Shown here: piece by piece, positions 55 to 46,038 of the stretch
Layout of the letters: each line of letters starts with the position of its first letter
How positions within the stretch are numbered: position 1 is the first letter of the stretch
Source of the DNA: a virus
Taxonomy: Duplodnaviria > Caudoviricetes
Direction: 5' to 3' (one strand)
Virus record (IMG/VR): IMGVR_UViG_3300048895_000023
Coordinates: 1-54,335 of that record
Length of the DNA: 54,335 nt
The notes under the pieces: generated by a model
The model's database searches: none
The model's input: the letters and a program-made list of their open reading frames with translations, nothing else
What the model was told of the DNA's origin: nothing
Program-made: the position numbers and the translations under genes

Positions 55-180
55 CGGATTGTGACGGGGGTACCAAGACTATTTCCATGGGTCTTCATCA
101 GCCCTTCTCCTTTCAAGAGTGCGCGTATCGGTCGGGTCCGAAAAGTGCATTAAAAGTCTTGGTACCTCCATCAAAGTCCG
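55..180 (+). ncRNA. candidate structured small RNA with anti-RBS sequence
   Basis: GGGGGTACCAAGACT (66-80) pairs with AGTCTTGGTACCTCC (155-169), extendable with G-U pairs/mismatches to ~55-180; the interior contains TTCTCCTTTCAAGAG (105-119), the reverse complement of the repeated CTCTTGAAAGGAGAA start signal. Confidence 0.5.
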
Positions 181-2466: not shown

Positions 2467-2503
2467 GAAGTGGCCCTATTCAAAATGGGATCAGGGCCAC
2501 TTC
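2467..2503 (+). other. 11-bp hairpin with TCAAAATGG motif in the loop
   Basis: GAAGTGGCCCT-attcaaaatgggatc-AGGGCCACTTC. Confidence 0.6.
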
Positions 2504-2530
2504 TCTAACGTTTTAGGAAAGGAGGCAGCG

Positions 2531-2920
2531 ATGGCTGATGTAACGCCGCCCGAAGTAGATCCGAAAGCTAGCATCCTAATCAGTACAAAGAAAATGCTGC
2601 AGATCGCTGCCGACGATGATTCCTTCGACACGGACATCATCCTCCACATCAACTCAGTATTTTCCATCCTCCAACAGATAGGCCTCGGTCTGACCGACGA
2701 AGAATTTGTTGTCGAGGATGAAACGCAGCTCTGGGAACAGGCCGTAACGTCGCAGAAGAATCTCAACATGATCAAGTCGTACATGTATTTGAAAGTACGA
2801 ACCATGTTTGACCCTGCAGCTAGTGGCTTTGTAACCGACTCGTTCGAACGACAAATCAAAGAATTCGAGTGGCGCATCATGGTTGCTGCCTCATCGACTC
2901 CAAACATCACTGAAAGCTAG
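2531..2920 (+). CDS. putative head-to-tail adaptor/connector
   Basis: RBS GAAAGGAGG; SILISTKKML...FDTDIILHIN...IKSYMYLKVRTMFDP resembles gp6-like connector proteins. Confidence 0.6.
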   Translation: MADVTPPEVDPKASILISTKKMLQIAADDDSFDTDIILHINSVFSILQQIGLGLTDEEFVVEDETQLWEQAVTSQKNLNMIKSYMYLKVRTMFDPAASGFVTDSFERQIKEFEWRIMVAASSTPNITES

Positions 2921-2931
2921 AAGGGAAGCCC

Positions 2932-3363
2932 ATGGCTACAGACGAAGAAGCAATGGAAGATTTCCTAGCACATTTCGGTGTTCTAGGGATGAAGTGGGGT
3001 AAGCACCTACCTGGTCGAGAAGCAACTTCTATCCGCCAACCCCGTCGCAAGGAACTGCATCCTGATCATATCGAGAAGCAGAACCTAAAGCGCAACGGTG
3101 CAAAGCGACTCAGCACGGCAGAGATCAAGAAAGTTAATGATCGAATCCAGGCAGAGCAGAACTACAAGAAGCTTTCTCCTGGAACTGTGGGTAAAGGTAA
3201 GAAGATCATGCTTGGTCTTATTGCTGCTGCGGGTACGGGCGTAACCGTCTACAACATGGTTCAGTCTCCGGCTGGAAAGAAGGCCATCGAGGTTGGCAGT
3301 GCTGCCCTCGACCGGATGGATGATGCTATCTGGAAAGCCGTAGTCAACAACATGTACCAGTAA
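2932..3363 (+). CDS. LAHxGxxGMKWG-leader protein 1 (putative virion protein)
   Basis: N-terminus MATDEEAMEDFLAHFGVLGMKWG, then basic region and hydrophobic segment. Confidence 0.75.
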   Translation: MATDEEAMEDFLAHFGVLGMKWGKHLPGREATSIRQPRRKELHPDHIEKQNLKRNGAKRLSTAEIKKVNDRIQAEQNYKKLSPGTVGKGKKIMLGLIAAAGTGVTVYNMVQSPAGKKAIEVGSAALDRMDDAIWKAVVNNMYQ

Positions 3364-3376
3364 TGAAAGGAGGTTA

Positions 3377-5140
3377 GTGATGAGTCTCTCTAACACGGCC
3401 ACACCAAGATATTTTGGTGAGTTTCGTGATGCCGTACTCCGAGGCGATATTCCTGTAAACAAGGAAATTTCTGCTGAGATGAACCGCATTGAAGAGCTCA
3501 TCGCTAACCCCTTCTATTACTACGATAGCAGGGCGATCGATGGGTTCATTGCATATTGTGAAGCTGAGCTAACCCTCACTGATGGTAGCTCGGTCCATCT
3601 GCTTGATTCTTTCAAACTGTGGGCAGAAGAACTGCTCGCATGGTTCTATTACGTCGAACGTAGCGTCTACGTACCCTCCAAGAATAATCACGGAGGGCAT
3701 TACGAGACCAAGCTTATTAAGAAGCGTTTGACGGTCAAGCAGTATCTCATCGTTGCCCGTGGTGCCGCCAAGTCAATGTATGCTTCGTTCATTCAAGCAT
3801 ATTTTCTTAACATCGACACCACGACAACCCATCAAATCACTACCGCTCCAACGATGAAGCAAGCCGAAGAAGTGATGGCTCCGTTCAGAACGGCTATCAC
3901 GCGCGCGCCAGGACCGCTGTTCAAATATTTGACCGAAGGGTCTCTTCAGAACACAACTGGTAATCGTGCTCTTCGCATGAAGCTGGCATCGACAAAGGTC
4001 GGTATTCAGAACTTCCTCACAGACTCTAGGCTTGAGATTCGACCCATGTCGATTAACAAACTTCAGGGTCTGCGACCAAAGATTTCAACAATCGATGAGT
4101 GGCTATCCGGTGACGTTCGTGAGGATGTTATTGGTGCCATTGAACAGGGCGCATCTAAGGATGACCAGGATTATCTGATCGTGGCGATTAGCTCTGAGGG
4201 AACCGTTCGAAACGGCGCTGGCGATACCATCAAGATGGAGCTCGCTAACATTCTCAAGGGCATTGGTCATCCATCGCCTCACATCTCCATATTCCATTAT
4301 AAGCTCGATTCAATCGAGGAAGTTAATGATGAAGCGATGTGGCCAAAGGCGAATCCAAATCTTGGCTTCACAGTAACCTATGAAGTCTATCAGCTTGATG
4401 TCGAGCGTGCCGAGAACAACCCCTCAGTGCGAAACGATATTCTTGCTAAGCGGTTTGGTATACCCATGGAGGGCTACACATATTTCTTCACTTACGAAGA
4501 AACTCTGCCCTTCACCCCTCGTCGTGACGTTCGTTTTCATGGAATGCGATGTGCGATGGGCGCGGACCTTTCTCAAGGTGATGACTTCACAGCTTTCACA
4601 TTTCTGTTCCCTCTTCCTGATGGATCCTTCGGAGTCAAGACTCGAAGCTATATTTCTCAGAACACCATGCTGAAGCTCCCAGGAGCAATGCGTGCTAAGT
4701 ACGAGGAATTCATCAATGAAGGAAGCCTCCACGTTCTCGAGGGGGTTACCCTTGACATGATGGAAGTCTATGAGGATCTCGATGCACATATTGAGCGATT
4801 CAAGTATGATGTTTGTGCCTTCGGGTATGACCCGTACAATGCTCAAGAGTTCATGCAGCGTTGGCAGAATGAAAACGGTCCCTATGGGATCGAGAAAGTT
4901 ATTCAGGGAGCCAGAACCGAATCGGTACCTCTCGGTGAGCTTAAGAAACTGAGCGAGAATCGAATGCTTATATTCGATGAAGAACTCATGACTTTCGCTA
5001 TGGGTAACTCGGTTACCATGGAAGACACTAATGGTAACCGCAAGCTATTCAAGAAACGCCAAGAGGCAAAGATTGATAATGTGGCCGCTCTAATGGACGC
5101 ATACGTTGCCTATAAGGCACATAAGATGGAATTCGACTAG
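3377..5140 (+). CDS. terL: terminase large subunit
   Basis: Walker A-like VARGAAKS, Walker B STIDEW, nuclease GADLSQGDDFTA and C-terminal KIDNVAALMDA. Confidence 0.93.
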   Translation: MMSLSNTATPRYFGEFRDAVLRGDIPVNKEISAEMNRIEELIANPFYYYDSRAIDGFIAYCEAELTLTDGSSVHLLDSFKLWAEELLAWFYYVERSVYVPSKNNHGGHYETKLIKKRLTVKQYLIVARGAAKSMYASFIQAYFLNIDTTTTHQITTAPTMKQAEEVMAPFRTAITRAPGPLFKYLTEGSLQNTTGNRALRMKLASTKVGIQNFLTDSRLEIRPMSINKLQGLRPKISTIDEWLSGDVREDVIGAIEQGASKDDQDYLIVAISSEGTVRNGAGDTIKMELANILKGIGHPSPHISIFHYKLDSIEEVNDEAMWPKANPNLGFTVTYEVYQLDVERAENNPSVRNDILAKRFGIPMEGYTYFFTYEETLPFTPRRDVRFHGMRCAMGADLSQGDDFTAFTFLFPLPDGSFGVKTRSYISQNTMLKLPGAMRAKYEEFINEGSLHVLEGVTLDMMEVYEDLDAHIERFKYDVCAFGYDPYNAQEFMQRWQNENGPYGIEKVIQGARTESVPLGELKKLSENRMLIFDEELMTFAMGNSVTMEDTNGNRKLFKKRQEAKIDNVAALMDAYVAYKAHKMEFD

Positions 5141-24149: not shown

Positions 24150-24428
24150 TTGAGTGAAACGTCTATCGACACTGCGAACAAAGGGATTCTTCTCTCTGGG
24201 CGTACCTACGATATTCTGAAAGATGTCAACCTGGTGGGTCTACCTGCTCTAGCGACGCTCTACGCGACTCTAGCTCTTATTTGGCACTGGCCATTCTCAG
24301 AGCAGATCGTTGGCACCATCGCAGCTATCGTTCTTTTCATGGGAGTAATCCTTAAGATCAGTAGCGTGCAGTACAAGGCAAAGGTTGCAGCACTGGACAC
24401 GGAGTTTATGACGGCGGATTCGCAGTAA
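24150..24428 (+). CDS. holin (Dp-1-like)
   Basis: YDILK...LPALATLY...IW...EQIVGTIAA...ISSVQY; two TM segments. Confidence 0.82.
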   Translation: MSETSIDTANKGILLSGRTYDILKDVNLVGLPALATLYATLALIWHWPFSEQIVGTIAAIVLFMGVILKISSVQYKAKVAALDTEFMTADSQ

Positions 24429-24469
24429 TTTCACGCCTTATAATGAACCCCTCTTGAAAGGAGACCCAC

Positions 24470-24748
24470 GTGCGCAAACTGCCCGTAACATTCACCAAAG
24501 CCATCGAAACCGAACAGCTTCGACTTCTCTCTGAAGCCGAGTCGCTAGGAACCGATTCCCCCGATTACAAAACCAAAATTGAATTCATCAAAAGCCTTAA
24601 TGAAACGAAGTCCAAAAAGGACAACAATGCCATTATCGCTGCGCTGATCAGTGCTGGCGCATCCGTCGCAGGAATCCTCCTCGTACTCAACTATGAGAGA
24701 GCCGGAGCCGTCGTCTCGAAGTCGTTTGGACTTGTTAAGAAAGCTTAA
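24470..24748 (+). CDS. cassette 1 small membrane protein
   Basis: GTG after CTCTTGAAAGGAG; C-terminal TM segment. Confidence 0.75.
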   Translation: MRKLPVTFTKAIETEQLRLLSEAESLGTDSPDYKTKIEFIKSLNETKSKKDNNAIIAALISAGASVAGILLVLNYERAGAVVSKSFGLVKKA

Positions 24749-24775
24749 CCACCAAATCAACTAAAAGAACATCCG

Positions 24776-24820
24776 AAAGGAAGGACTAGACCTAAAAATT
24801 CTAGTCCTTCCTTTTTCTTT
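24776..24820 (+). terminator. intrinsic terminator-like hairpin
   Basis: perfect 15-bp stem AAAGGAAGGACTAGA / TCTAGTCCTTCCTTT, loop CCTAAAAAT, T-run. Confidence 0.8.
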
Positions 24821-24845
24821 TCGCGAGAAAAACAACCCCTATAAT

Positions 24846-24960
24846 GAACCAATAAACCGCTTCCCTGCAAAGGGTGTCTCCCGAAAGCGTAACCAATCAG
24901 ACTATTATTCGGACTTTGGTTCTTTATATCCTCACGGTAATTCCACAAAGGTTATAAATT
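24846..24960 (+). ncRNA. candidate small RNA occupying cassette 2
   Basis: promoter motif with no RBS or ORF behind it; GAACCAA (24846) pairs with TTGGTTC (24916); CCCT-GCAA-AGGG GNRA hairpin; CCGAA/TTCGG. Confidence 0.5.
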
Positions 24961-25010
24961 TTGCGCGTGTAATACATGCCTTATAATGAACCCCTATGAA
25001 AGGATTTATT

Positions 25011-25151
25011 ATGAAAGAACTCACAGGCCCACAGATTGCCATTCTGTTTGGTCTAGCATGCACTGCCTCCGCAGTAGCAACTGGACTAGTACTCAGAACC
25101 ATATCTCGAAAGCTCAACCCAGAGCCAGTATCATATCTCTCCGCCATGTAG
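25011..25151 (+). CDS. cassette 3, 46-aa membrane peptide
   Basis: ATG after ATGAAAGGA; MKELTGPQIAILFGLACTASAVATGLVLRTISRKLNPEPVSYLSAM; not in the ORF track. Confidence 0.7.
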   Translation: MKELTGPQIAILFGLACTASAVATGLVLRTISRKLNPEPVSYLSAM

Positions 25152-25241
25152 GCACAGAAAGCTATCAGCCCCTAACACGGGCTATAGTTTTTCGCAGGAA
25201 AAACAGGTCATATAATGAACCCCTCTTGAAAGGAGACTCAC

Positions 25242-25508
25242 ATGACCACCAACTCAAACCCAGATTCCACTAAAGTCATTGCAGTAGTAACTGTAGTAAT
25301 TCTAGGAACGGCCACCATCGTGCTTAGGCACCGCAACTCGCAACTCAAAGCAGAGAACAAGAAATTGTCCTTTACCAAAGTACATTACACGCGGACCATC
25401 GAGCGCCTCATCAACCATATTCCCAGAGATCACTACGACGCTGTTGTTGCCGACTTGAACGAAGATCTGAAGTTTGCGATCATCACACGAGATCTAAACA
25501 AGAACTAA
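25242..25508 (+). CDS. cassette 4 small membrane-anchored protein
   Basis: RBS CTCTTGAAAGGAG; N-terminal TM segment. Confidence 0.75.
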   Translation: MTTNSNPDSTKVIAVVTVVILGTATIVLRHRNSQLKAENKKLSFTKVHYTRTIERLINHIPRDHYDAVVADLNEDLKFAIITRDLNKN

Positions 25509-25591
25509 CAAAGCTATCAGCCCCTCACACGGGCTATAGTTTTTCGCAGGAAAAACAAGGGCTATAGTGAACCCCTATGAAAGGAAAACTA

Positions 25592-25825
25592 ATGACCAAG
25601 TTTCAAACTTTTTGTAAGAAGCACCAGACCCCTATCCTCATCGCAAGTTGCGCTGTCGCTACGGTCGCTGTTGTAATTGCCGTCAATCAGGTTAAGACCC
25701 GAATGATTGCAAACTACACTCCCGACCCCCTAGCCGAAGCCGCAGCTTTCGAAGACTTTACAAAGGCCATGGCTCTCGCAAAGAAGTATGACGCAGAAGA
25801 TGCAGCCAAACTTCTAGGAAAGTAA
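25592..25825 (+). CDS. cassette 5 small membrane-anchored protein
   Basis: ATG 25592 after ATGAAAGGA; one TM segment. Confidence 0.75.
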   Translation: MTKFQTFCKKHQTPILIASCAVATVAVVIAVNQVKTRMIANYTPDPLAEAAAFEDFTKAMALAKKYDAEDAAKLLGK

Positions 25826-25916
25826 AAAGCTATCAGCCCCTCGCACGGGCTATAGTTTTGCCTAGATCTCGCGTAATATTCATAGCATATAATGAACCCC
25901 TATGAAAGGAACAACC

Positions 25917-26003
25917 ATGTTTAACACCATCAAGTCCATCATCGCCGAGATCAAGCAAGACCTTGCTAACGCTCGCCCGATGTGGAACCACGTTGCTAAC
26001 TAA
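25917..26003 (+). CDS. cassette 6, 28-aa peptide
   Basis: own promoter motif and RBS; MFNTIKSIIAEIKQDLANARPMWNHVAN. Confidence 0.65.
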   Translation: MFNTIKSIIAEIKQDLANARPMWNHVAN

Positions 26004-26124
26004 GTTACATCTTCACAGTTAACAAAACCAACAGCCCCTAACACGGGCTTTAGGTTTTTCTCGTCTTATATTTTTGCGCGTGAAAAACAAGGGCTATAGT
26101 GACACCCCTATGAAAGGACACACC

Positions 26125-26379
26125 ATGTCAACTGAAGAAATCCAATTCACCCCCATCGCGATTAAGATCGCTGCCCCTCGAACCGCGCATATTCTGGCGA
26201 TGCTAGAGCCCCGCTTTGCGGAAATGGACTACGATACCCTCCTCCACGGAAACTACGTCGTATTCGATTACCCCGAAAACGGACACTACACCCTCGTCAC
26301 CGAAGAGCGTTTCCAGGCAAAGTTCACCAATCCTTGGGAACCTTGGTTCTTCCAGCCCTTGGTAGTAGACACTATCTAA
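26125..26379 (+). CDS. cassette 7 hypothetical protein
   Basis: ATG 26125 after ATGAAAGGA; 84 aa soluble. Confidence 0.75.
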   Translation: MSTEEIQFTPIAIKIAAPRTAHILAMLEPRFAEMDYDTLLHGNYVVFDYPENGHYTLVTEERFQAKFTNPWEPWFFQPLVVDTI

Positions 26380-26469
26380 GAAGTCAGAAAGCTATCAGCC
26401 CCTCACACGGGCTATAGTTTTTCGCGTAATATTCATAGGGTATAATGAACCCCTATGAAAGGAAAACCC

Positions 26470-26643
26470 ATGACCATCAAGCCCGTCATCGCCAAATCCG
26501 TCTTCACCGTTCAGGCCCACGCCATTGCCGCTGGAACCTTCGCTTACGCGATTGGTTACGTTGCAAAGACCGCGGTCCAGGACAGCGTCAAGACGATCAA
26601 GGAAATGAAAGCCGAAGGCTACTTCACCCCAAATAAGTTCTAA
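26470..26643 (+). CDS. cassette 8 small protein
   Basis: ATG 26470 after ATGAAAGGA; 57 aa with hydrophobic middle. Confidence 0.7.
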   Translation: MTIKPVIAKSVFTVQAHAIAAGTFAYAIGYVAKTAVQDSVKTIKEMKAEGYFTPNKF

Positions 26644-26737
26644 ACCAAAAACCAAAAGCCCCTAACAAGGCCTATGGTTTTATTTTTTGCGCGAGAAAAA
26701 CAAGCGCTATAGTGAAACCTCTTGAAAGGAGATCCTC

Positions 26738-26917
26738 ATGAACGTCACGTTTACCACCAACAACTCCAGCCTCCAGCTCTCCAAAGTTGGTTCCGTAGCT
26801 CTTGTCACCTATGCCACCGTCGGCATGGTTGTCATCAGTCTCGGAATCGCCAACCTCGGAGAACGAGCTGTCGTTGCGTACAAGCGCCGACTCAACCGTA
26901 AGATCAACGAAAAGTAA
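26738..26917 (+). CDS. cassette 9, 59-aa membrane peptide
   Basis: RBS CTCTTGAAAGGAG; MNVTFTT...VALVTYATVGMVVISLGIANL...YKRRLNRKINEK; not in the ORF track. Confidence 0.72.
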   Translation: MNVTFTTNNSSLQLSKVGSVALVTYATVGMVVISLGIANLGERAVVAYKRRLNRKINEK

Positions 26918-27017
26918 ATCACAAAGCCAAAAGCCCCACAAGGCCTATGGTTTTCTTTTTCTCGCGAGATTTTCAGACCCTATAATGAACCCCTATTCTC
27001 TTGAAAGGAGAACCCAA

Positions 27018-27218
27018 ATGAACACCACCGAACCAACCGTCGTGATCCACAACTACCCCACCATCAAGGAGCAGCTTGCACAGGGCGGTATCTCCCTCGC
27101 CATCGGCGTCGGCGTTACCGTTGCCTATGTAGGCGTCTTCGCGCTGGTCGACTTTGTGGGCAAGAAGGTCAAGGCTCGCAAGGCCGCTCAGACCGAAACC
27201 ACCCCTTCAACTGACTAA
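27018..27218 (+). CDS. cassette 10 small membrane protein
   Basis: ATG 27018 after CTCTTGAAAGGAG; one TM segment then basic tail. Confidence 0.75.
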   Translation: MNTTEPTVVIHNYPTIKEQLAQGGISLAIGVGVTVAYVGVFALVDFVGKKVKARKAAQTETTPSTD

Positions 27219-27281
27219 CAATCAAAGCTAAACTACAACTAACACTTGTGGTTTATGCTTTCATTTTTCTAAGGAAGAATC

Positions 27282-27518
27282 ATGACAGTAGAACATGTTA
27301 AGGCGTGGAAGGTCACAGAAGAGAACACTTTGATCCTCAAGAACATATCTGGAGAGGCTGAGGCTACTTTTAAGTCTTGTCCTGGCTGGGTTCTCATTGA
27401 GGACTGGAGTGAGCGCCCGCGCTTTCTTTTGATGCCGGAATCCGTATTCCACACGTACTATCCGAACCTCGAATTCACTGAATTATCAATAGATTCGCGA
27501 GAAATACAAGGGGTATAA
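27282..27518 (+). CDS. hypothetical protein
   Basis: ORF track; RBS TAAGGA; faint resemblance to 26125..26379 and 43888..44211. Confidence 0.65.
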   Translation: MTVEHVKAWKVTEENTLILKNISGEAEATFKSCPGWVLIEDWSERPRFLLMPESVFHTYYPNLEFTELSIDSREIQGV

Positions 27519-27543
27519 TGAACCCCCTATGAAAGGAAAAACC

Positions 27544-27693
27544 ATGAAGAAGCTCAAGCAGAAGTTTGAGGAAGACCCCATCTTCGCTACCACCCTTATC
27601 ATCACCGGAGCAGTCGTTGCTACCGGCCTGATAAAGGCAATTGCGAAGGGAATCGAATCCTCTGCTTACGCCTACCGCGCCTCCAAGCTCTAA
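27544..27693 (+). CDS. cassette 11, 49-aa membrane peptide
   Basis: MKKLKQKFEEDPIFATTLIITGAVVATGLIKAIAKGIESSAYAYRASKL; promoter motif and RBS; not in the ORF track. Confidence 0.72.
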   Translation: MKKLKQKFEEDPIFATTLIITGAVVATGLIKAIAKGIESSAYAYRASKL

Positions 27694-27764
27694 ACCCATA
27701 AGGAACAAAACTCGAACTACAACTAATACTTGTGGTTTGAGTTTCTTTTTTTGAAAGGCATTAC

Positions 27765-28088
27765 ATGCTAGCAATTCATTTTGGAATTCGTGAAAGCGAA
27801 GTAGCCGTATTCAAGGGTCAGATCAGCCGTATGGTCTCAGAACCCCTCGAGATTCGTACATGGGCAGAGGCCTGGGATGCTGGGAATGATCCAGAGTTCA
27901 TCTTGGAGCCTACCACCCACGTAGTACTCACCACCATGACTCCAATGGTTCTGCTCAACTTCATTGCTGGAAACTTCAGTAATTTCCTTGTCCCTCACGC
28001 AGCAGAGAACCTTGACGGTGTTCTGATGTTTGTTACGGACTCGGAAGAGTGGACCAGTGAGTACCTGGAACTCCGATATCCAGGATAA
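27765..28088 (+). CDS. hypothetical protein
   Basis: ORF track; RBS TGAAAGG. Confidence 0.65.
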   Translation: MLAIHFGIRESEVAVFKGQISRMVSEPLEIRTWAEAWDAGNDPEFILEPTTHVVLTTMTPMVLLNFIAGNFSNFLVPHAAENLDGVLMFVTDSEEWTSEYLELRYPG

Positions 28089-28146
28089 ACTCGCGTAAAA
28101 ATCAGGTGTTATAATGACCCAGTAAACCTCTTGAAAGGAAGTTATT

Positions 28147-28323
28147 ATGCCTGAAGTCAACGTCGTTAAGAACACCCCCTCGAACGACTTTAGCCCTAAG
28201 CTGAAGTTCGTCGTTTCCGTGGGAGCCCAAGTAATCATTGGACTCCTCGGAATCGCCGTCACAGCTGCAGTTACAGTCGCCCTCGCTAAGGGTACCGAAA
28301 CCGCCATTGAACTCGCTGAGTAA
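28147..28323 (+). CDS. cassette 12, 58-aa membrane peptide
   Basis: MPEVNVV...FVVSVGAQVIIGLLGIAVTAAVTVALAKG...; promoter motif and RBS; not in the ORF track. Confidence 0.72.
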   Translation: MPEVNVVKNTPSNDFSPKLKFVVSVGAQVIIGLLGIAVTAAVTVALAKGTETAIELAE

Positions 28324-28405
28324 TCACTCACAGATCCAACTGAACAAAACCTAAACTACAACTAACACTTGTGGTTTAGGTTTACATTTTTGAAAAGGAG
28401 ATAAA

Positions 28406-28627
28406 ATGCATGAGCCACTCTTTATAGAGCCTTGGTGGTTAATGGTATTAGTAGCCATTGCCCTATGGGTTCTATGGATTGCTCTGGTGCTCAACTTCCG
28501 AGCAAAGATTGACAATTACTTCGCTATGCGGAGGCACAACCGGCGTATGCGCAATTACATGAAGCGCAGCGCACAACTGGATATTGCAAGAAAGTTGGTC
28601 ACCAGTGACACTCGCACTCGCCGCTAG
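28406..28627 (+). CDS. small membrane protein
   Basis: RBS AAAGGAG; TM segment and basic tail. Confidence 0.7.
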   Translation: MHEPLFIEPWWLMVLVAIALWVLWIALVLNFRAKIDNYFAMRRHNRRMRNYMKRSAQLDIARKLVTSDTRTRR

Positions 28628-29363
28628 GAACGCCCTTGGCGTTGTCAAGCAAAAGTCCCCGGTTATTCTAACGGGGCTTGCGATCGGAGGTGTTGTGACT
28701 ACTACCGTATTGGCAGTACAAGCAACGCCTCGAGCAATCATCGCCATCGATGAAGACCAGGAGGACGGCACTACTCTCACTAAGTGGGAGGTCGTCAAGA
28801 AGGTTTGGCCCTACTATATTCCAGTCGTCATTACGGGCGGTCTCACGATCGCTTGTATGATTGGTGCCCAGAGTGTAAATACTCGGCGCCAGGCAGCTCT
28901 CGTTGGTGCTTTCACCATTACCGAAGGTGCCTTCCAGGAATATAAGGAACAGGTGGTCGAGGTACTTGGCAAGACCAAGGAGTCCTCAGAAGTTCGAGAG
29001 AAGATCATCCAGAAGAAGATTGAAGAGAATCCTCCTAGTAAGGATATCATCATCGGATCTGGTAACGTGTTGTGTTTTGACACGTATACTGGTCGATATT
29101 TCGAAAGTTCCATGGAGAAGATCCGTGCTGCCCAGAACGACTTCAATGAGATGCTCATCAATGGTGAGATGTACATGTCAGCGAACGAATTCTACCACCT
29201 GATCGATCTCGATGACGTTGTCGTCGGTGAGCAGGTTGGGTTCTCTCCTGAGAACACTATGAAGATCGAATTCACCTCTCGTCTGACCCCGGACGGGAGG
29301 CCTTGTCTTGCCATAAGCTTCCGAGCTCTTCCCCGGCAAGACTACAGATCGATGTTCCAATAG
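28605..29363 (+). CDS. DUF6353-like membrane-associated protein
   Basis: SPVILTGLAIGGVVTTTVLAVQATP...RRQAALVGAF...NEFY; paralogous to 35808..36698; family name from memory; start uncertain. Confidence 0.65.
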   Translation: MTLALAARNALGVVKQKSPVILTGLAIGGVVTTTVLAVQATPRAIIAIDEDQEDGTTLTKWEVVKKVWPYYIPVVITGGLTIACMIGAQSVNTRRQAALVGAFTITEGAFQEYKEQVVEVLGKTKESSEVREKIIQKKIEENPPSKDIIIGSGNVLCFDTYTGRYFESSMEKIRAAQNDFNEMLINGEMYMSANEFYHLIDLDDVVVGEQVGFSPENTMKIEFTSRLTPDGRPCLAISFRALPRQDYRSMFQ

Positions 29364-29498
29364 CCCTTGCCTATGCCCCGTCTGTACGGAGATCGGCGAA
29401 GACGAAATCTGCCACTGTCCGGAATGTGAGGGAGCCGGATTGTGACTAAAACCCTAAAGACCCCACTTGAATTAATTCAACCAACAAAGGAGAAAAAG

Positions 29499-29636
29499 AT
29501 GGACAAGCTCAAGGCATACGCCGCAGCGGCAGGACAGAACAAGCAGCTGGTGGCGGTTACCGCTATCGCTTCTGCAGGACTGGCTCTGGTAATTGAGAAC
29601 GGCATTCGTATTGCCATTCTCAAGAAGAAGGCCTAG
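29499..29636 (+). CDS. small hydrophobic protein
   Basis: RBS AAAGGAG, 45 aa. Confidence 0.6.
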   Translation: MDKLKAYAAAAGQNKQLVAVTAIASAGLALVIENGIRIAILKKKA

Positions 29637-29699
29637 GTCGCATATTTGAGGGCGCTGTCTATACGATGGCGCCCTCAAAAGCTCTCTTGAAAGGAGACT

Positions 29700-29975
29700 T
29701 TGATGGCCGAATCATCAGTAAAACGTACCACTGCTGAACTACACGCCCTTATTGCCCTGGCGACCGAACTCGGTTTCCTGGATGATCTGGCTGTGTGGCA
29801 AGCAGAACTCGCCGAAAACGAGCGTGTTGAGGGCGAGAAGACTTACCACTTTGCGTGGCAAGGACGCAACAAATTCATTGACGCAACTAGCGAAGATGAA
29901 GCTCGAGTTATGTTCGCTGAGCGCTTCGGCTTCGAAGCCTCTTTCGTATCGGCAACCGTCAAGGTTCTCGATTAA
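29700..29975 (+). CDS. hypothetical protein
   Basis: RBS CTCTTGAAAGGAG preceded by a GC hairpin (TTTGAGGGCGC...GCGCCCTCAAA). Confidence 0.7.
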   Translation: MMAESSVKRTTAELHALIALATELGFLDDLAVWQAELAENERVEGEKTYHFAWQGRNKFIDATSEDEARVMFAERFGFEASFVSATVKVLD

Positions 29976-29989
29976 ATATAAGGAGTAAG

Positions 29990-31690
29990 ATGAAGAAAGT
30001 CACTTCGCTACTTGCCGTAGCGTTGCTGTCTGCTAGTGCCGTAATCGGCATTGGTACGTCAGCGTCGGCATCTGTCGTAGACTGTATCCCCTCTGAGGGA
30101 GTCGCAGCATACGACGAAACCATCACGGAGGCCTTTGACGAGATCATCGTCGATTCGGCAGCCATTGACCTCTGGTACTCTTGGACAGGTGGCCCGAGTG
30201 ATGCTCATGCCTTCCCAGGCTTGGACTGGCAGGTTGATCAGGGAAACCACAACGGATTTGACCAGACTCCTGGTCTCCTCCAGCGTGACAAGGGCAACAG
30301 CGGAGAGAGCGACTGGTTCTATCACCAGGTAGTTGCTGCTGTGACCCACCCGGTGCACCACGATGCAGTTATCGTACACCACGATGCAGTTCCTCCCGTT
30401 ACGTGCGGTGACGACGAGCCGGTAGTTCAGGTTGGTCTATATTGCTATGACAAGCTCGATGCCTCACTTCCGGCATCGTGGGAGAACTCTGGAGTGCAGA
30501 CTCTCGTAGCTGTCAAGGCTGGGACTGAGGACTGGACTCTCGCTGAGAAGCTAGCACTCTGCTTTATTCCAGAAGAGTCCTGCGACCCTGTGTCGTCAGG
30601 TTCTCAGACCGACTGGGTGAGTACGGACGAGGAATTTACGTTCCCTGACCATATTCTCTACCCGACTGACAACATTGGCTGGCCGCCGATCTACAATGCT
30701 GTTCACACGGACCTTTCTCCGGCTTTGTCGGAAGAGGGTTGTGAGCCTGTTGTAGAACCTGAGTACTGCGTTGCTGATGGCGACTGGTACACTGAAGGCG
30801 ACGACTCGGCTCCGGCTGAGACTGCTGATGGTCTGGTATTCACCGGTGGTTCTGGTAATGCTGTTGGCTACCGTCATGCGGTAACTGGCAACCTCCAGGG
30901 TCTCGACACGATCAACTACACGGCAAGCGGAGATCTTGATCTCTTCTATATCCGTATCGTTCTGGATTCAACGGAAGACGGTGGATGGGCATATGACTCG
31001 CTCACCGTTATTTCTGAGGGTCCGGTAAACGGATCGTCTATCGCGTCGTCGAACAAGCGTGGGTTTGTTACTCACACTCTTGACGAGTGGGCTGCACTTC
31101 TGCCCAACAGCGACATCACTTCCATCGGATTCCACCTGGACTCTGGCGCTAGTGCTGACAAGTCAGTAACTCTCGTATTGTTCGAGGGAAACTGCCTTGA
31201 GGGAGAATTCGGATATCCTGAGACCGTGGGCTTCCCTGCTCAGTTCTCGGCTGACCCGGATATTCCTACCTGTGACACTGATGGTGTAGCGCCGCTTCTT
31301 GGCGAGTACCCCAACGTGACAATCACATCTGACCGTCCTTTCGACGGTCCTGGAGAGTACACGATTACGGTTACGCCAAATGGAGATTTCATCCTGACGG
31401 ATATTCCTGAGTCGTGGACTGTTAACCCTGATGGTTCGGCAAGTCGTGTCATTGATATCCTGCCCGCAACTGGAGTTACTCAGAGTGAAGACCCTGAGGC
31501 CGCTTGCTACGCAGCACCTCCTATCAGTGACCCGCCCACGACTAACCCTCCTGTGGTGACTCCTACTGGTACGATCCCAGCTCTTGGAGCGCATGACCCG
31601 ATTGGTGGCATTATTGCATCGATCGTAGCCGGTCTTGCTGGTATCGGACTCCTGCTCTTCGGTCGTTTCCGTAAGGGTGCAGTAATCTAG
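29990..31690 (+). CDS. secreted, cell-surface anchored protein
   Basis: Sec signal peptide (MKKVTSLLAVALL...ASA), acidic Cys-containing body, Pro/Thr linker, IPALG, TM segment, RFRK tail. Confidence 0.8.
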   Translation: MKKVTSLLAVALLSASAVIGIGTSASASVVDCIPSEGVAAYDETITEAFDEIIVDSAAIDLWYSWTGGPSDAHAFPGLDWQVDQGNHNGFDQTPGLLQRDKGNSGESDWFYHQVVAAVTHPVHHDAVIVHHDAVPPVTCGDDEPVVQVGLYCYDKLDASLPASWENSGVQTLVAVKAGTEDWTLAEKLALCFIPEESCDPVSSGSQTDWVSTDEEFTFPDHILYPTDNIGWPPIYNAVHTDLSPALSEEGCEPVVEPEYCVADGDWYTEGDDSAPAETADGLVFTGGSGNAVGYRHAVTGNLQGLDTINYTASGDLDLFYIRIVLDSTEDGGWAYDSLTVISEGPVNGSSIASSNKRGFVTHTLDEWAALLPNSDITSIGFHLDSGASADKSVTLVLFEGNCLEGEFGYPETVGFPAQFSADPDIPTCDTDGVAPLLGEYPNVTITSDRPFDGPGEYTITVTPNGDFILTDIPESWTVNPDGSASRVIDILPATGVTQSEDPEAACYAAPPISDPPTTNPPVVTPTGTIPALGAHDPIGGIIASIVAGLAGIGLLLFGRFRKGAVI

Positions 31691-31697
31691 TTATATC

Positions 31698-31797
31698 TGA
31701 AGGTCGAATTGCCACCGTAGACATACTTCCCCCAAGTGGTGTCTGGTAACGAGTCGATAGGTGTTTAGTGGCAAGAATGCCCTACGACTGACCTTCC
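31698..31797 (+). ncRNA. candidate pseudoknotted RNA motif, copy 1
   Basis: intergenic; GAAGGT/ACCTTC, ACC(GT)AGAC/GTCTGGT, AGTCG/CGACT stems and TTGCCA/TGGCAA pseudoknot; second copy at 33286. Confidence 0.65.
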
Positions 31798-31820
31798 TAT
31801 AATCTCTTGAAAGGAGAATC

Positions 31821-32084
31821 GTGGCTATCAAAGCACACTTTACCATCTTCTCTGGTCCTCCTCGATCAGGTAAGACCAGATATGCCAACGAGTTGAAGTC
31901 TGATCCCAATCAGAAAGTCTTCATTCAATTCGAAGGCCATAACGAGGAACATGTCATACGACAGATATTTGCAGTTCTGGCTGATGGTTGTGATGTTATT
32001 TATGAAACCACGCATCCAGTTACTCGGATCTCACAACAGCTTTTGGATCGAGTAGACACCATTGAGGTGTTTAGAGTTAACTAA
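31821..32084 (+). CDS. small P-loop-containing protein
   Basis: IFSGPPRSGKT Walker A; only 87 aa. Confidence 0.65.
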   Translation: MAIKAHFTIFSGPPRSGKTRYANELKSDPNQKVFIQFEGHNEEHVIRQIFAVLADGCDVIYETTHPVTRISQQLLDRVDTIEVFRVN

Positions 32085-32107
32085 TTCTCTTTGAAAGGAG
32101 AAAACTG

Positions 32108-32230
32108 ATGGGCTACAACACGAAATCAAAGTACGGATTCTGGGCATTTGTCTTGGATCTTTTCCTCATCGTTATCACGGGAGGCATCTGGCTTATCTGG
32201 ATGATCTTCCGTGCACTTAGGAGTAACTAA
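32108..32230 (+). CDS. 40-aa membrane peptide
   Basis: RBS GAAAGGAG; MGYNTKSKYGFWAFVLDLFLIVITGGIWLIWMIFRALRSN. Confidence 0.7.
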   Translation: MGYNTKSKYGFWAFVLDLFLIVITGGIWLIWMIFRALRSN

Positions 32231-32541
32231 TGGCTGAGTTGCCAGAAGACACCACAGAATATGATCTGAATCCAGATCGCTTCCTCATCCACGCCAAGCA
32301 GTTCGTCGTCGGCGCCAATGCTGTAGAGACCGCCGAGACCGGAGAGGAAGAGTTGACAGTTGAGCAGCTCTATATTGTCTGGTTCGCCAAGGTTCTTGGT
32401 AACTGGAAGGCCCTCATCTCGACGACTGTCCCTGGTGATGGTCTATATTTCGAGGTGACACACAGCGGTGAGAAGAACGAAACCTACGTGGATATTTACA
32501 GGAAGTCCGCGAATCACTTGTTCTCCCACAACAACCACTAA
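32230..32541 (+). CDS. DUF6275-like protein
   Basis: YIVWFAKVLGNWKALIST...YFEVT...ETYVDIYRK; family name from memory. Confidence 0.65.
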   Translation: MAELPEDTTEYDLNPDRFLIHAKQFVVGANAVETAETGEEELTVEQLYIVWFAKVLGNWKALISTTVPGDGLYFEVTHSGEKNETYVDIYRKSANHLFSHNNH

Positions 32542-32555
32542 CAAGAAAGAAAGAT

Positions 32556-33143
32556 ATGCTACGCAAAGAGATTACGTACACCAACTTCAATGGTAAGGAG
32601 GTGACGAAGCCATTCTTCTTCAACATCACGAAGGCTGAGATCGGTCTCCGTGAGATGGAGTCAGACGGCACCTGGTCTGAGACTCTTAAGACGATCCAGG
32701 AGTCAAACAAGGGCTCCGTCGTTCTCCCAGAGTTCCGTAAGATCATTCAGTGGGTCTATGGAGAGAAGAGCGAAGATGGTGAATCATTCCTCAAGAGTGA
32801 TGAAATTTGGGCCAAGTTCAACAACTCAGAGCCCTGGTCCAAGCTTATCATGGAGCTCCTACAGAACCCAGGCTACGCAGCGCAGTTCATTAAGGAGTGC
32901 ATGCCAGCAGATATGCAGGGTGCTCTTTCGGAGAAGTTGGCTGAACCCGGATTCCGTCCAGGAGCAGACACCTCTCGACCCACACCACCAGCTAATCCGC
33001 CAGCGGCCGCACCTCAACCTGAAGTTGTCCAACAGCCGGCGTATCTCGCTCCGGCACCTGTTGAAGTAGCTCCACAGCAACCAGCTACCGAAGCACCAGT
33101 AGTACAGCAGTCGACTCCTCGCGAGCCTGATCTGTCGCAGTAA
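32556..33143 (+). CDS. conserved phage hypothetical protein
   Basis: MLRKEITYTNFNG...YGEKSEDG.SF.KS; Pro/Gln-rich tail. Confidence 0.7.
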   Translation: MLRKEITYTNFNGKEVTKPFFFNITKAEIGLREMESDGTWSETLKTIQESNKGSVVLPEFRKIIQWVYGEKSEDGESFLKSDEIWAKFNNSEPWSKLIMELLQNPGYAAQFIKECMPADMQGALSEKLAEPGFRPGADTSRPTPPANPPAAAPQPEVVQQPAYLAPAPVEVAPQQPATEAPVVQQSTPREPDLSQ

Positions 33144-33280
33144 ATTCCCGAAAGGGAGCCCGGTCAGGGGTCGAACTCTGGCCGGGCACATAGATTTATG
33201 GGGAATATTCCGTCACTACCACCTCCTTTCAAGATAAAGTGGCTGGAATGTTTTAAATAACAGCAAATCAGTGCCCCGAT
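33144..33280 (+). ncRNA. candidate structured RNA with anti-RBS loop
   Basis: TCCC-GAAA-GGGA and GC hairpins, then AATATTCC.GTCACT-[ACCACCTCCTTTCAAGATAA]-AGTGGC.GGAATGTT. Confidence 0.55.
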
Positions 33281-33285
33281 TTTTA

Positions 33286-33465
33286 TGAAGGTCGAATGAC
33301 TACCGTAGACGCCACTTTTTCATAGGGGTTGCGTTTGGTAATGAGTTATATGCTTACTGTGTGTTCGTTGAAGTCCGGTGACTCGGGCTGTACCCAGGTC
33401 TATAAAAACGTGGAGCGATCTTAAGAAGCACTGATAGTCATATTTATGAGCTATAACTAACCTTC
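33286..33465 (+). ncRNA. candidate pseudoknotted RNA motif, copy 2
   Basis: same conserved blocks as 31698-31797 with compensatory changes and a longer insert. Confidence 0.65.
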
Positions 33466-33751
33466 CCGTACCAGGGGATTTCCCAGTGCCTTCGATGACT
33501 TGACGAAAGTCAGTTAGCCGGAGGGGAATCTGAAATGACCGCCAATACCTAAAGGCGCCCTGGTACATCATATTTTTAGGGCATCGGATAAGCCTAATCC
33601 TGAGCGGAATACGCAGGGAAGAAATAAACCGACGACGAGCCGGAGTTAGACCTTGGTAGCAGTCCCCGGATAAAACGGGCTGTGAAACGTAGAGTATCGG
33701 AATCCTGGGCACGATCTAAAACTACCCAACCTTATTCTTTACAAGGAGAGA

Positions 33752-33976
33752 ATGATGATGTTCAAGCGTTATATTAAGGTTAGCCTTGAAAAGAAGGCTG
33801 ATGAGTATGGCATTATAATGCCGCATGATCGACCCAACCCGTATTATGAGAAGATCGTCGAACGGCAGACAAAGCGCTTGTTCGTTGGAAGTCTTATTCT
33901 CATTGGAACAACAGTAGTCCTGGTCACGGTCGGACAGATTACTGTGAACGCTCTAAACCCGGCCTCGCGAAAATAA
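33752..33976 (+). CDS. small membrane protein
   Basis: RBS AAGGAG; C-terminal TM segment. Confidence 0.65.
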   Translation: MMMFKRYIKVSLEKKADEYGIIMPHDRPNPYYEKIVERQTKRLFVGSLILIGTTVVLVTVGQITVNALNPASRK

Positions 33977-33992
33977 CAACCCCTATAATGAA
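33965..33992 (+). promoter_or_regulatory. promoter motif copy 13
   Basis: TCGCG-AAAATAA-CA-ACCCC-TATAATGAA. Confidence 0.85.
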
Positions 33993-34034
33993 GCCCCGTC
34001 TGGGACTTTATATTTCTCTTGAAAGGAGAATGTC

Positions 34035-38390: not shown

Positions 38391-38412
38391 CTCACGCTCT
38401 TGAAAGGAGGAA

Positions 38413-44211: not shown

Positions 44212-44262
44212 CCATTTATCCTGGGTATGATTTAAAACTGCCCTTCTCTTGAAAGGAGACAT

Positions 44263-44682
44263 ATGCCTAGTATTGAAGGATTGGCCGATGAGCCATGCCT
44301 TATTTGTAATCACCTACTTCGACACCATGTGAACGGACCAGAGGTCAAAGGCGCATGCCAGGGTCTCTTGTGTCGGTGCGATGGGTTTGTCTTTAATCCT
44401 ACCCCAGTAGCAGACAAGATGGGAAGACTTTACGAAGAAGCAGTTCTTGAACCGGACATGGTAAATCATCCCCCGCACTACAAGAGTGGTTCCATTGAGG
44501 TCTGGGACTTCATTATCGACCAAGATCTCTCTTACGCATCCGGGAATGTAGTAAAGTATATTTCCAGAGCAGGTAAGAAGGGTAAGGACACCCATCTGCA
44601 GGACCTTGAGAAGGCACAGGCATATCTCAAGCGCGAAATTCAACGAGTAAAAGATCTCTTGAAAGGAGATAAAAGTGGATGA
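44263..44682 (+). CDS. DUF3310-like protein with N-terminal Cys/His extension
   Basis: VNHPPHY..G.IEVWDFI...GNVVKYISRAGKK...DLEKA..YL.REI. Confidence 0.8.
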   Translation: MPSIEGLADEPCLICNHLLRHHVNGPEVKGACQGLLCRCDGFVFNPTPVADKMGRLYEEAVLEPDMVNHPPHYKSGSIEVWDFIIDQDLSYASGNVVKYISRAGKKGKDTHLQDLEKAQAYLKREIQRVKDLLKGDKSG

Positions 44683-44917: not shown

Positions 44918-45297
44918 TGAGTCGCGACGACGGCTACCTGGTTCGCCAGAGGCCTCGTAAGACTTACGCGATGGCTGGCAAGTGGGTAGTACAACACTAC
45001 TTCACAAGTGCTCAGTGGCCGGATATTAACGATCCTAGTCTTGAGGAGTACGGCAATCTGGAGTCAGCACTTGGGGCGTATAAAGACGCTGCGAATGAGA
45101 CTGAGTATGGTTTCCGTATCGTACAGGACGAGCCACTTATTTCTGGTGGCTCCACCGTCTACGATGCTGAGCACACCGAGGAAACGCTTAGGCGGGTCTA
45201 TGGTGCTCTGCATACCGAAGGCATCTACGGTCAAAAGGCTGTGGATGTAGTCAATGCAATTCACAACAACGGCGTACTATTTAGGGATCGATCATGA
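44917..45297 (+). CDS. hypothetical protein
   Basis: coupled to neighbours. Confidence 0.7.
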   Translation: MSRDDGYLVRQRPRKTYAMAGKWVVQHYFTSAQWPDINDPSLEEYGNLESALGAYKDAANETEYGFRIVQDEPLISGGSTVYDAEHTEETLRRVYGALHTEGIYGQKAVDVVNAIHNNGVLFRDRS

Positions 45298-45713
45298 TTA
45301 CGGAGTGGTGGCAGTGGATATTCGTGATTGCTGGAGGACTCCTGCTTGCGGGAATCTCCTACATCCTATTCAGTATCATTATTGGGCTGATTGCTATGTG
45401 GAGCGGTAAGATCTACTGGCACACTTATGCCTGGGCTCACAACCGTAAAGCCCGTAAGCTGAATGAGAAGGCTCGACTTGAGCGACTCAAGCGTACGGAT
45501 TGGGAAGGCATTCGTCTTCCTATGGGCAAGTCTGGCGAATTGACATATTCTGTCGAAGAGCAGATGTCCTGGGTAAGTGTTGACTCCCATCGTCTTGAGA
45601 AGGTCCTTAAGGATCGTGCTGATGACCTGGGAGTTGAGTTCCAATTTGCTACCAACAACGCGACGAGAGAAATCTCTGTTCGTTGGGCACCACGTCTGCG
45701 CGTGGATAAATAG
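45294..45713 (+). CDS. membrane-anchored hypothetical protein
   Basis: N-terminal TM segment. Confidence 0.7.
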   Translation: MITEWWQWIFVIAGGLLLAGISYILFSIIIGLIAMWSGKIYWHTYAWAHNRKARKLNEKARLERLKRTDWEGIRLPMGKSGELTYSVEEQMSWVSVDSHRLEKVLKDRADDLGVEFQFATNNATREISVRWAPRLRVDK

Positions 45714-46015
45714 GTCTTAGGCGCAGAGCGGGTAATGGGGTGACTTCATAGAGGAGGAGATCATCAAACGGGTTGAAGCCGGATTTGCTAACTAGTTTAG
45801 CCAAAAACCTACCCCATTATCGTGACAATTACTAGCATGCACCGGTTGAAAAAGCCCGGATAGTCGGTCACTATGAGTGATCCAAAAGCCCCTGCTGATT
45901 AATTAGGTCATTCATAGGCTGTGTGACGAGAATGGACGGACTGATTACCCGTCTATACGAGGCTCGTCAGGGGGCCGCTCTAGGAAATCTTACTGACCTA
46001 GAGCGGCCCTTCCAC
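45714..46015 (+). ncRNA. candidate structured RNA region
   Basis: ~300 nt without an ORF of 60 aa or more; stems GGTAATGGGGT/ACCCCATTATC, GTGAC/GTCAC, CTATGAGTGA/TCATTCATAG, TGACGAG/CTCGTCA, GGCCGCTCTAGG/CCTAGAGCGGCC. Confidence 0.45.
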
Positions 46016-46038
46016 CAAACTCTCTTGAAAGGGGAAGA

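Follow-up and report, generated by a model that had tools for sequence, protein, structure and literature searches.

The phage record and its non-coding gap

The window, that is the whole stretch of DNA analyzed here, is a whole IMG/VR soil phage record of 54,335 bp, which is 95% complete as a genome according to CheckV and has a G+C content of 49%. Its long ORFs are all on the + strand, with the packaging and structural genes at the left (large terminase at 3377-5140) and the non-structural genes at the right. The window proteins share only 30-50% identity with those of actinobacterial phages, and similar proteins are found in Microbacterium Cluster EL phages as well as in Arthrobacter, Gordonia, Curtobacterium, Rhodococcus and Streptomyces phages. 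Cluster EL phages are described as lytic, low in G+C, transcribed entirely rightward and networked with Clusters AM, AU, BI, CC and DJ; this description mentions no repeated motif for the cluster (PMC7302621). At 45690-45745 (+), overlapping the end of ORF 45294-45713, Rfam 15 places a Pistol self-cleaving ribozyme (RF02679), which scores 43.4 bits where the gathering score is 34.5; it is the only match at gathering score in the whole window.

The gene at 32556-33143 (+) matches the Pfam family Phage_TAC_17 ('tail assembly chaperone') with an E value of 1.8e-32. It is located in the non-structural region, distant from the tail genes, and the C-terminal third of its product is a low-complexity tail rich in Pro, Ala and Gln. 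Directly downstream of it lie the following features:

33144-33751 (+): ORF-poor gap of 608 nt, which opens with the two hairpins below
33158-33187 (+): minihelix, a G+C-rich hairpin of 12 bp with the 6-nt loop GUCGAA, then CAC (to 33190)
33202-33254 (+): hairpin of 16 pairs (10 + 6) with one bulged T and a 20-nt apical loop
33218-33237 (+): the apical loop, ACCACCTCCTTTCAAGATAA, 20 nt
33223-33234 (+): anti-copy CTCCTTTCAAGA, the exact reverse complement of the start-associated 12-mer TCTTGAAAGGAG

Folding of the gap gave a z of -4.4 for the + strand and -0.9 for the - strand, based on 20 shuffles of each. The only sizeable frame in the gap is a 130-aa minus-strand ORF (33320-33712), which we rejected as a gene: Pfam and a tblastn search of 50,697 phage records gave nothing for it and PHROGs only a single weak match (E 0.029), and its codon score is -0.15, compared with +0.175 for plus-strand and -0.04 for minus-strand ORFs. 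The hairpin locus itself is non-coding, with no + strand ORF of at least 30 aa running across it. At E values up to 10, the Rfam matches to 33100-33800 and 1-300 were of chance, snoRNA-like level only; the same database gave nothing relevant for the relatives L002, L191 and L192, and ARAGORN called no tRNA or tmRNA gene in the window and 10 related loci.

The minihelix resembles the T-arm plus acceptor of a tRNA and is similar to the same part of tRNA-like structures that we noticed in two relatives. In L002, a full cloverleaf with a canonical UUCGAGU T-loop and an 11-nt 'anticodon' loop lies just after the hairpin (1489-1581, +). In Microbacterium phage Camille, a tRNA-like structure ending GCACCCACCA, unannotated in the record, lies in the gap after the homologous gene cluster (L192 ~2972-3044, +). 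Neither ARAGORN nor Rfam calls any of the three. Such structures beside the hairpins may mark sites of a processing step that would free the hairpin RNA.

The hairpin and its loop

The hairpin is formed by pairing of GGAATATTCCGTCACT (33202-33217) with AGTGGC (33238-33243) and, beyond the bulged T (33244), with GGAATGTTTT (33245-33254); several of the 16 pairs are G-U. The original prediction had placed here a 20-nt loop held by the stems AATATTCC/GGAATGTT and GTCACT/AGTGGC. Its sequence and coordinates proved accurate, both stems are contained in the 16 pairs, and the 12-mer lies in the loop, letter for letter, at 33223-33234.

The region 33183-33278 folds with -27.6 kcal/mol (z -3.0), and one of 200 shuffles was equally good. 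The folding energy by itself is modest, because the 71-nt core alone has a z of only -1.8, with 12 of 200 shuffles as good. The loop is unpaired in both the MFE and the centroid structures. This display of the 12-mer is rare: 12 unpaired nucleotides enclosed by at least 12 pairs were found at 0.4% of 1500 random window positions, and the 13 forward sites described below, used as a control, are never displayed unpaired within an enclosing hairpin. The + strand holds two exact reverse complements of the 12-mer, at 107-118 and 33223-33234, where simple arithmetic for one 12-mer in 54 kb gives an expectation of ~0.003 per strand.

The start-associated motif

With up to one mismatch allowed, the 12-mer occurs 14 times in the window against 0.53 expected, and the largest number in 100 shuffles was 3. 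Twelve of these occurrences are TCTTGAAAGGAG-type sites on the + strand and the other two are the exact reverse complements on the same strand. A looser pattern, (T/C)(C/T)TTGAAAGG(A/G)(G/A), gives 13 sites on the + strand, so that forward and reverse orientations stand at 13 to 2:

24452-24463 (+): start-associated motif TCTTGAAAGGAG, 6 nt to GTG, TATAAT 7 nt upstream
25224-25235 (+): motif, 6 nt to ATG, TATAAT upstream
26720-26731 (+): motif, 6 nt to ATG
26999-27010 (+): motif, 7 nt to ATG
28129-28140 (+): motif, GGAA variant, 6 nt to ATG
29685-29696 (+): motif, 6 nt to ATG
31805-31816 (+): motif, 4 nt to GTG, TATAAT 1 nt upstream
32089-32100 (+): motif variant CTTTGAAAGGAG, 7 nt to ATG
34017-34028 (+): motif, 6 nt to ATG
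38398-38409 (+): motif plus a 3' G, which extends the complement of the loop to 13 nt, 6 nt to ATG
44247-44258 (+): motif, 4 nt to ATG
44657-44668 (+): motif, 6 nt to GTG
46023-46034 (+): motif, GGGG variant, 4 nt to GTG

Every one of the 13 sites lies 4-7 nt before an ATG or GTG, and all are located between 24.4 and 46.0 kb, with none in the terminase-to-tail region. The base at -1 is C in all 12 canonical sites and, together with A at +13, makes up the consensus flanks of the motif. As a short asymmetric repeat with a Shine-Dalgarno core close to gene starts, in nearly uniform orientation and restricted to the non-structural part of the genome, the motif has the hallmarks of a start-associated sequence. 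TATAAT or near-TATAAT boxes were seen 1-13 nt upstream of at least seven of the sites (window 24420-34016), as would be expected of several host-type promoters in a row whose very short leaders start at the motif or within it.

With its usual flanks the forward motif is also self-complementary (UCUCUU-GAA-AGGAGA), and this could account for the TCTT extension without a partner in trans. In about half of the forward sites a small hairpin that pairs the GGAG is predicted (for example 26999-27013 and 34015-34031). Alternatively, motif and anti-motif may be a pair of complementary hairpins.

Relatives of the hairpin locus

With the 222-aa protein encoded 1.2 kb downstream as query, 17 viral and 33 metagenome loci were collected. 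The second hairpin is present in one of the 17 viral loci (L002) and in one of the 33 metagenome loci (L140), and the latter is the same 60,247-bp contig as the former. This closest relative (L002/G001) shows 61% amino acid identity in the flanking protein. Its hairpin begins 5 nt past the stop codon of the upstream-gene homologue and has 12 bp, UUUCUCAUCGCC paired with GGCGAUGAGAGG, around a 20-nt loop (ACAAACCUCCUUUCAAGAUA / ACAAACCTCCTTTCAAGATA), with a z of -2.5 to -3.5. Window and relative have no stem sequence in common, yet the 16-nt block ACCTCCTTTCAAGATA of the loop is identical in both, and in a blastn comparison of the two gaps this 16-mer is the only significant match (E 2e-4). The finding of the same loop on an unrelated stem is not due to chance, and a loop that is kept while its stem is replaced argues for selection on the loop and not on the stem sequence.

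A second anti-copy is found in each of the Microbacterium phages Camille and DizzyRudy, in non-coding gaps of 458 nt and 475 nt. Between differing stems (CCCTGCG/CGCGGG and CACACCA/TGGTGTG) the two gaps carry an identical block of 21 nt, TTCCTTTCAAGGGTTCTCAAA, whose UUCC complements the GGAA motif variant CTTGAAAGGAA, a variant that makes up 4 of the 10 forward matches in Camille and 2 of the 6 in DizzyRudy. The hairpin is predicted in DizzyRudy (z -1.9), whereas the local fold of Camille is no better than shuffles (z -0.5). Both gaps open with a 64-nt block that is 95% identical (L194 783-846 in Camille, L295 138-201 in DizzyRudy); since the remaining gap has diverged, this block may be another conserved non-coding element.

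Wider searches added no further relatives of the hairpin. A scan of IMG/VR with the 15-mer CACCTCCTTTCAAGA gave 117 stretches, 78 of which simply precede ORFs of 40 aa or more on the opposite strand as ordinary ribosome-binding sites, and by eye none of the other 39 resembles the hairpin element. The exact 16-mer was found in 28 IMG/VR stretches, about the number that we estimate for chance, with the hairpin only in the known relative. The 195-aa upstream protein retrieved no relative as a query for related loci, and blastn of 33100-33800 against isolated phages had no match. The close comparison for the hairpin locus consists of one relative and one more distant pair.

A conserved element at the left end

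The other anti-copy belongs to a larger structure, located upstream of the packaging and structural genes:

62-173 (+): first anti-copy element, with an outer stem, a hairpin with a ..UCAUC.. loop, single-stranded CUCCUUUCAAGAG and a second hairpin
107-118 (+): anti-copy CTCCTTTCAAGA, in the single-stranded junction of this multi-branch structure

The claim that a second, independent non-coding locus carries the same 12-mer is borne out by this element, which is itself conserved and structured. Its fold has a z of -5.6 in the window and -7.7 in Camille, and the same architecture is found in G001, in G003 at ~1.9 kb upstream of the terminase and in Camille at 1.7 kb upstream of it. The core pattern TCATC..CC..CTCCTTTCAAG was found in 72 IMG/VR stretches, of which, by a rough estimate, ~20 would be due to chance; when GG upstream and a short spacer were required and duplicates were taken out, 52 distinct sequences were left, including the window and five isolate loci. 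They come from IMG/VR contigs and from Microbacterium, Curtobacterium and Arthrobacter phages. While CTCCTTTCAAG was fixed by the search, the next AG is nearly invariant though not required.

Using a script-based helix test, we found that hairpin arms pair over at least 5 bp with their own partner in 61.5% of cases and with the arms of other members in 35.5%. This evidence of covariation is moderate, because the GGG/CCC core is conserved and is partly imposed by the filter, and an alignment of three elements of this type by MAFFT and RNAalifold did not align the outer stems. By blastn, the element was also found, unannotated, in the Microbacterium phages DizzyRudy, Damascus and Count, in four Curtobacterium phages and in the Arthrobacter phages Qui and Paella. 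The family suits none of the readings as a known Rfam type, a tRNA or a coding sequence. In Count, the exact anti-copy (L294, record 2577-2587) falls within a stretch annotated as gene 7 (2502-3044, hypothetical protein), an annotation that may cover a non-coding element.

The hairpin at 33202-33254 falls outside this type, which is defined by a UCAUC hairpin directly 5' of CUCCUUUCAAG, a second hairpin and an outer stem. It has no UCAUC hairpin and a different architecture, and the anti-motif is the sole feature that the two have in common.

Motif and anti-copy in other phages

Each of 24 IMG/VR records that had been picked for holding the element contains exactly one exact anti 11-mer, and eight of the nine that are at least 90% complete also contain 1-7 exact forward 11-mers. 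With up to one mismatch, forward and reverse copies number 10 and 2 in Camille, 6 and 2 in DizzyRudy, 5 and 2 in Pippin15, 13 and 2 in Qui, and 11 and 1 in Count. Among four phages picked by protein homology only, Cheesy has four exact forward copies and an exact anti-copy at 577-587, while Petito, Gravy and ReqiPepy6 have neither an exact forward copy nor an exact anti-copy. In the present group every examined phage with exact forward motifs has an anti-copy; the incomplete records G002 and G004 show none within the part that they cover. This comparison of motif and anti-copy covers a small number of phages, most of them selected in a biased way.

Start-associated sequences were defined in Cluster K mycobacteriophages, for which a single reverse site per genome, not linked to a gene start, is also described (PMC3203893). 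Anaya has 16 forward sites and one reverse site, and the latter (L174 48871-48883; record 59870-59882) is displayed in a 10-nt hairpin loop closed by the stem GCGCGG/CCGCGC. This Cluster K1 hairpin is located in a non-coding gap near the right end, and the homologous region is present in 150 Cluster K records, some of which annotate a hypothetical protein across the reverse site. An outer stem around the hairpin covaries among 12 aligned Cluster K phages, while the fold at the reverse site of Anaya is no better than shuffles (z -1.0 to -1.6) and Marshawn, Yuna, Keshu and SirPhilip have lost the loop by replacement or deletion. Marshawn and Keshu, both of Cluster K, carry 17 forward sites apiece and no reverse site, and the Cluster EF phage AnnaSerena carries 10 and none; such motifs can therefore do without an anti-copy.

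Proposed role of the hairpin and alternatives

The hairpin exhibits a structure, its loop is complementary to the start sites of the phage, and the loop is conserved while the stem is replaced. Our best explanation, which in our judgement has about an even chance of being right, is that the hairpin is a functional non-coding RNA of the + strand that pairs with the start-associated 5' leaders of the phage and blocks ribosome binding. Here it is transcription of the + strand, action in trans and repression that we infer. The hairpin would lie in the 3' untranslated region of the gene that ends at 33143, at the head of the 608-nt structured non-coding stretch, and its stem would keep the 20-nt loop open as an antisense 'seed' against the start-associated sequence (C)UCUUGAAAGGAG. 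In 13 non-structural genes this sequence makes up the Shine-Dalgarno region, in several cases right after a TATAAT box, and the loop would pair with their short 5' leaders over 12-13 contiguous pairs. Such pairing would outcompete the 16S rRNA tail, block binding of the 30S subunit and perhaps trigger decay of the message, with feedback or a timed shut-off of the motif-bearing gene set as the outcome. The hairpin would then be a lineage-specific second copy, and the conserved element at 62-173 the main one.

The loop is predicted to offer an accessible seed that is complementary to the ribosome-binding sites of its targets. When the loop is paired with the 13 sites, the predicted duplex energies range from -15.6 to -22.2 kcal/mol, and for the 107-118 junction with the 13 leaders from -19.0 to -28.5 kcal/mol, as compared to -10.8 to -17.1 kcal/mol for the 16S-tail motif, whose sequence we assume, with the same sites. 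At the consensus flanks of the motif (C at -1, A at +13) the junction copy is also the better match, while the hairpin loop has mismatches there; the loop flanks instead extend the resemblance to the 16S tail as we assume it to read. A role in cis, by sequestration of the next start site, was rejected: the next ribosome-binding site (33739) does not have the motif, and no forward motif lies within 8 kb of the second anti-copy of Camille.

One alternative, which we regard as unlikely, is that the hairpin is purely structural, as a stabilizer of a 3' end, a processing site or a terminator of the upstream operon, and that the content of its loop is a historical by-product with no antisense role, derived for example from a duplicated 62-173 junction or from an inverted promoter-RBS cassette. 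The position would suit such a role, as the hairpin starts ~60 nt past the stop codon, is preceded by the G+C-rich minihelix and is followed by UUUUAAAU, and the nearby tRNA-like structures in relatives suggest RNA processing. Yet it is the loop and not the stem that is conserved in both pairs of relatives, and the flanks beyond the 12-mer are unlike those of forward cassettes. A loop of 20 nt is far from the geometry of an intrinsic terminator (a G+C-rich stem, a loop of 3-8 nt and a direct U-run), the terminator scan did not call the hairpin, and a U-run follows it in only one of the four phages, that of the window.

Another possibility is mimicry of the 16S rRNA 3' tail. The sequence CACCTCCTTTC in the loop is what we take to be the 3' tail of actinobacterial 16S rRNA, and the RNA could thus be a decoy for a protein or nuclease that recognizes the anti-Shine-Dalgarno sequence (a host defence toxin, an initiation factor or a maturation factor), or a general sponge for Shine-Dalgarno sequences, including those of the host. 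The loops of the window and of L002 have 11 nt and 10 nt, respectively, in common with the 16S tail as we assume it. However, the loops of Camille and DizzyRudy read UUCCUUUC, and among the 52 members of the 62-173 family the bases 5' of CUCC vary, whereas AAGAG, which is absent from the assumed tail, is nearly invariant. It is the ability to pair with the phage motif that has been preserved across all copies, and this holds for the AAGA(G) part and for the UUCC of Camille and DizzyRudy as well; we find this alternative quite improbable. The anti-Shine-Dalgarno decoy of the original prediction fares accordingly in part: the non-coding locus, the selection on the loop and the perfect complementarity to the extended RBS motif all stand, while its wording as a decoy of the 16S tail, possibly acting on host mRNAs, is weaker than a reading directed against the start-associated sequence, because complementarity to the phage motif is conserved and identity to 16S is not.

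The anti-copy might also act as double-stranded DNA, as a site for a phage regulator that binds the forward motifs as well and is here in opposite orientation, with the inverted repeats incidental or part of the site. An operator-like position is suggested by the forward motifs that lie 1-13 nt behind TATAAT boxes, and the extended start-associated sequences of Cluster K, which contain SigA-like promoters, were proposed as protein sites (PMC3203893, PMC11373665). Against this, the sequence of the flanking repeats changes from one of the four phages to the next and yet they always pair, the bias in folding is confined to the + strand of the gap, and the fixed distance of 4-7 nt from motif to start codon indicates a constraint at the level of RNA, all of which leaves us doubtful of a DNA site to much the same degree as of 16S mimicry. 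The least probable option, a true minus-strand ribosome-binding site for a small peptide or an antisense gene, can point to a GTG 5 nt after the motif and to a sigma-70-like TTGAAA-17-AATATT match that overlaps it on the minus strand, but the -10-like hexamer is lost in L002, ORF 33320-33712 was rejected above, and the frames behind the motif differ in length (6 codons in the window and ~185, antisense to the upstream gene, in L002; 16 and 3 at the 107-118 locus), so that no minus-strand peptide is conserved and the small minus-strand ORFs were likewise rejected as genes.

Returning to an antisense RNA against the start-associated leaders, a broader and more tentative idea, to which we would give somewhat less than even weight, is that the supergroup of Camille, Cheesy and Qui and, perhaps independently, the Cluster K1 mycobacteriophages possess a translational regulon. 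Start-associated sequences would mark the non-structural genes, and structured RNAs that carry the complement, one of them heading the late operon, would switch this set off or on in trans.

Comparison with known systems

Shut-off of early messages at their ribosome-binding sites is known from phage T4, where it is carried out by the proteins RegA and RegB. The outcome proposed here is similar, in that a class of early messages would be inactivated through the Shine-Dalgarno region, but the proposed effector is an RNA and not a protein, and no homology is implied. Another parallel may be the c4 antisense RNA of phages P1 and P7 (Rfam C4), together with other RNAs that occlude an RBS in trans, since in our proposal too an RNA cut out of a phage transcript would pair with the ribosome-binding regions of the phage's own mRNA. 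The c4 RNA is matured by RNase P, and in three of the phages studied here tRNA-like structures adjoin the hairpin. Unlike c4, the proposed target is a repeated motif common to about a dozen genes and not one operon, and the C4 model has no match in the window at gathering score, nor in 33100-33800 or 1-300 at E values up to 10.

The hairpin can also be compared with the C-rich-loop RNAs of Gram-positive bacteria (the RNAIII/RsaA type of S. aureus and the mycobacterial 6C/B11), which likewise display a pyrimidine-rich anti-Shine-Dalgarno sequence in a hairpin loop; for RsaA, the abstract of PMC3961350 describes such pairing with a Shine-Dalgarno sequence. In contrast to those cellular RNAs, whose UCCC or C-rich seeds are short and pair imperfectly, the hairpin described here is phage-borne and carries an exact complement of 12-16 nt; it has no Rfam match to these families.

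The forward motif itself resembles the start-associated sequences of Cluster K mycobacteriophages and Cluster EF Microbacterium phages. It is asymmetric with a GGAG core, it exceeds the reach of 16S pairing, and it is placed a few nucleotides before starts, often behind promoter-like boxes, in the non-structural half only; the motif sequence and the phage lineage differ. With regard to the reverse copy, Anaya is similar in that its single site is also found in a hairpin loop, while Marshawn, Keshu and AnnaSerena, unlike the present group, have none. Start-associated sequences were first described in 2011 (PMC3203893), and in papers from 2024-2025 their role is still called unknown (PMC11373665, PMC12699233). 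The passages considered here from PMC3203893, PMC7302621, PMC11373665 and PMC12699233 make no mention of a comparable anti-motif RNA element, and none of the words antisense, hairpin, reverse and opposite appears in PMC12699233.

The analysis also brings to light an unannotated structured-RNA family with 52 distinct examples that is undetected by any Rfam model. A conserved structure that displays the exact complement of the motif leads to a concrete hypothesis, namely that one RNA may control a set of messages defined by that motif. As the elements are also present in cultured phages whose laboratory hosts are harmless (Camille and DizzyRudy of Microbacterium, Cheesy and Qui of Arthrobacter), this hypothesis is directly testable. 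If the regulon reading is true, it would provide the first functional explanation of start-associated sequences and add a new class of phage master-regulator RNA to the systems compared above.
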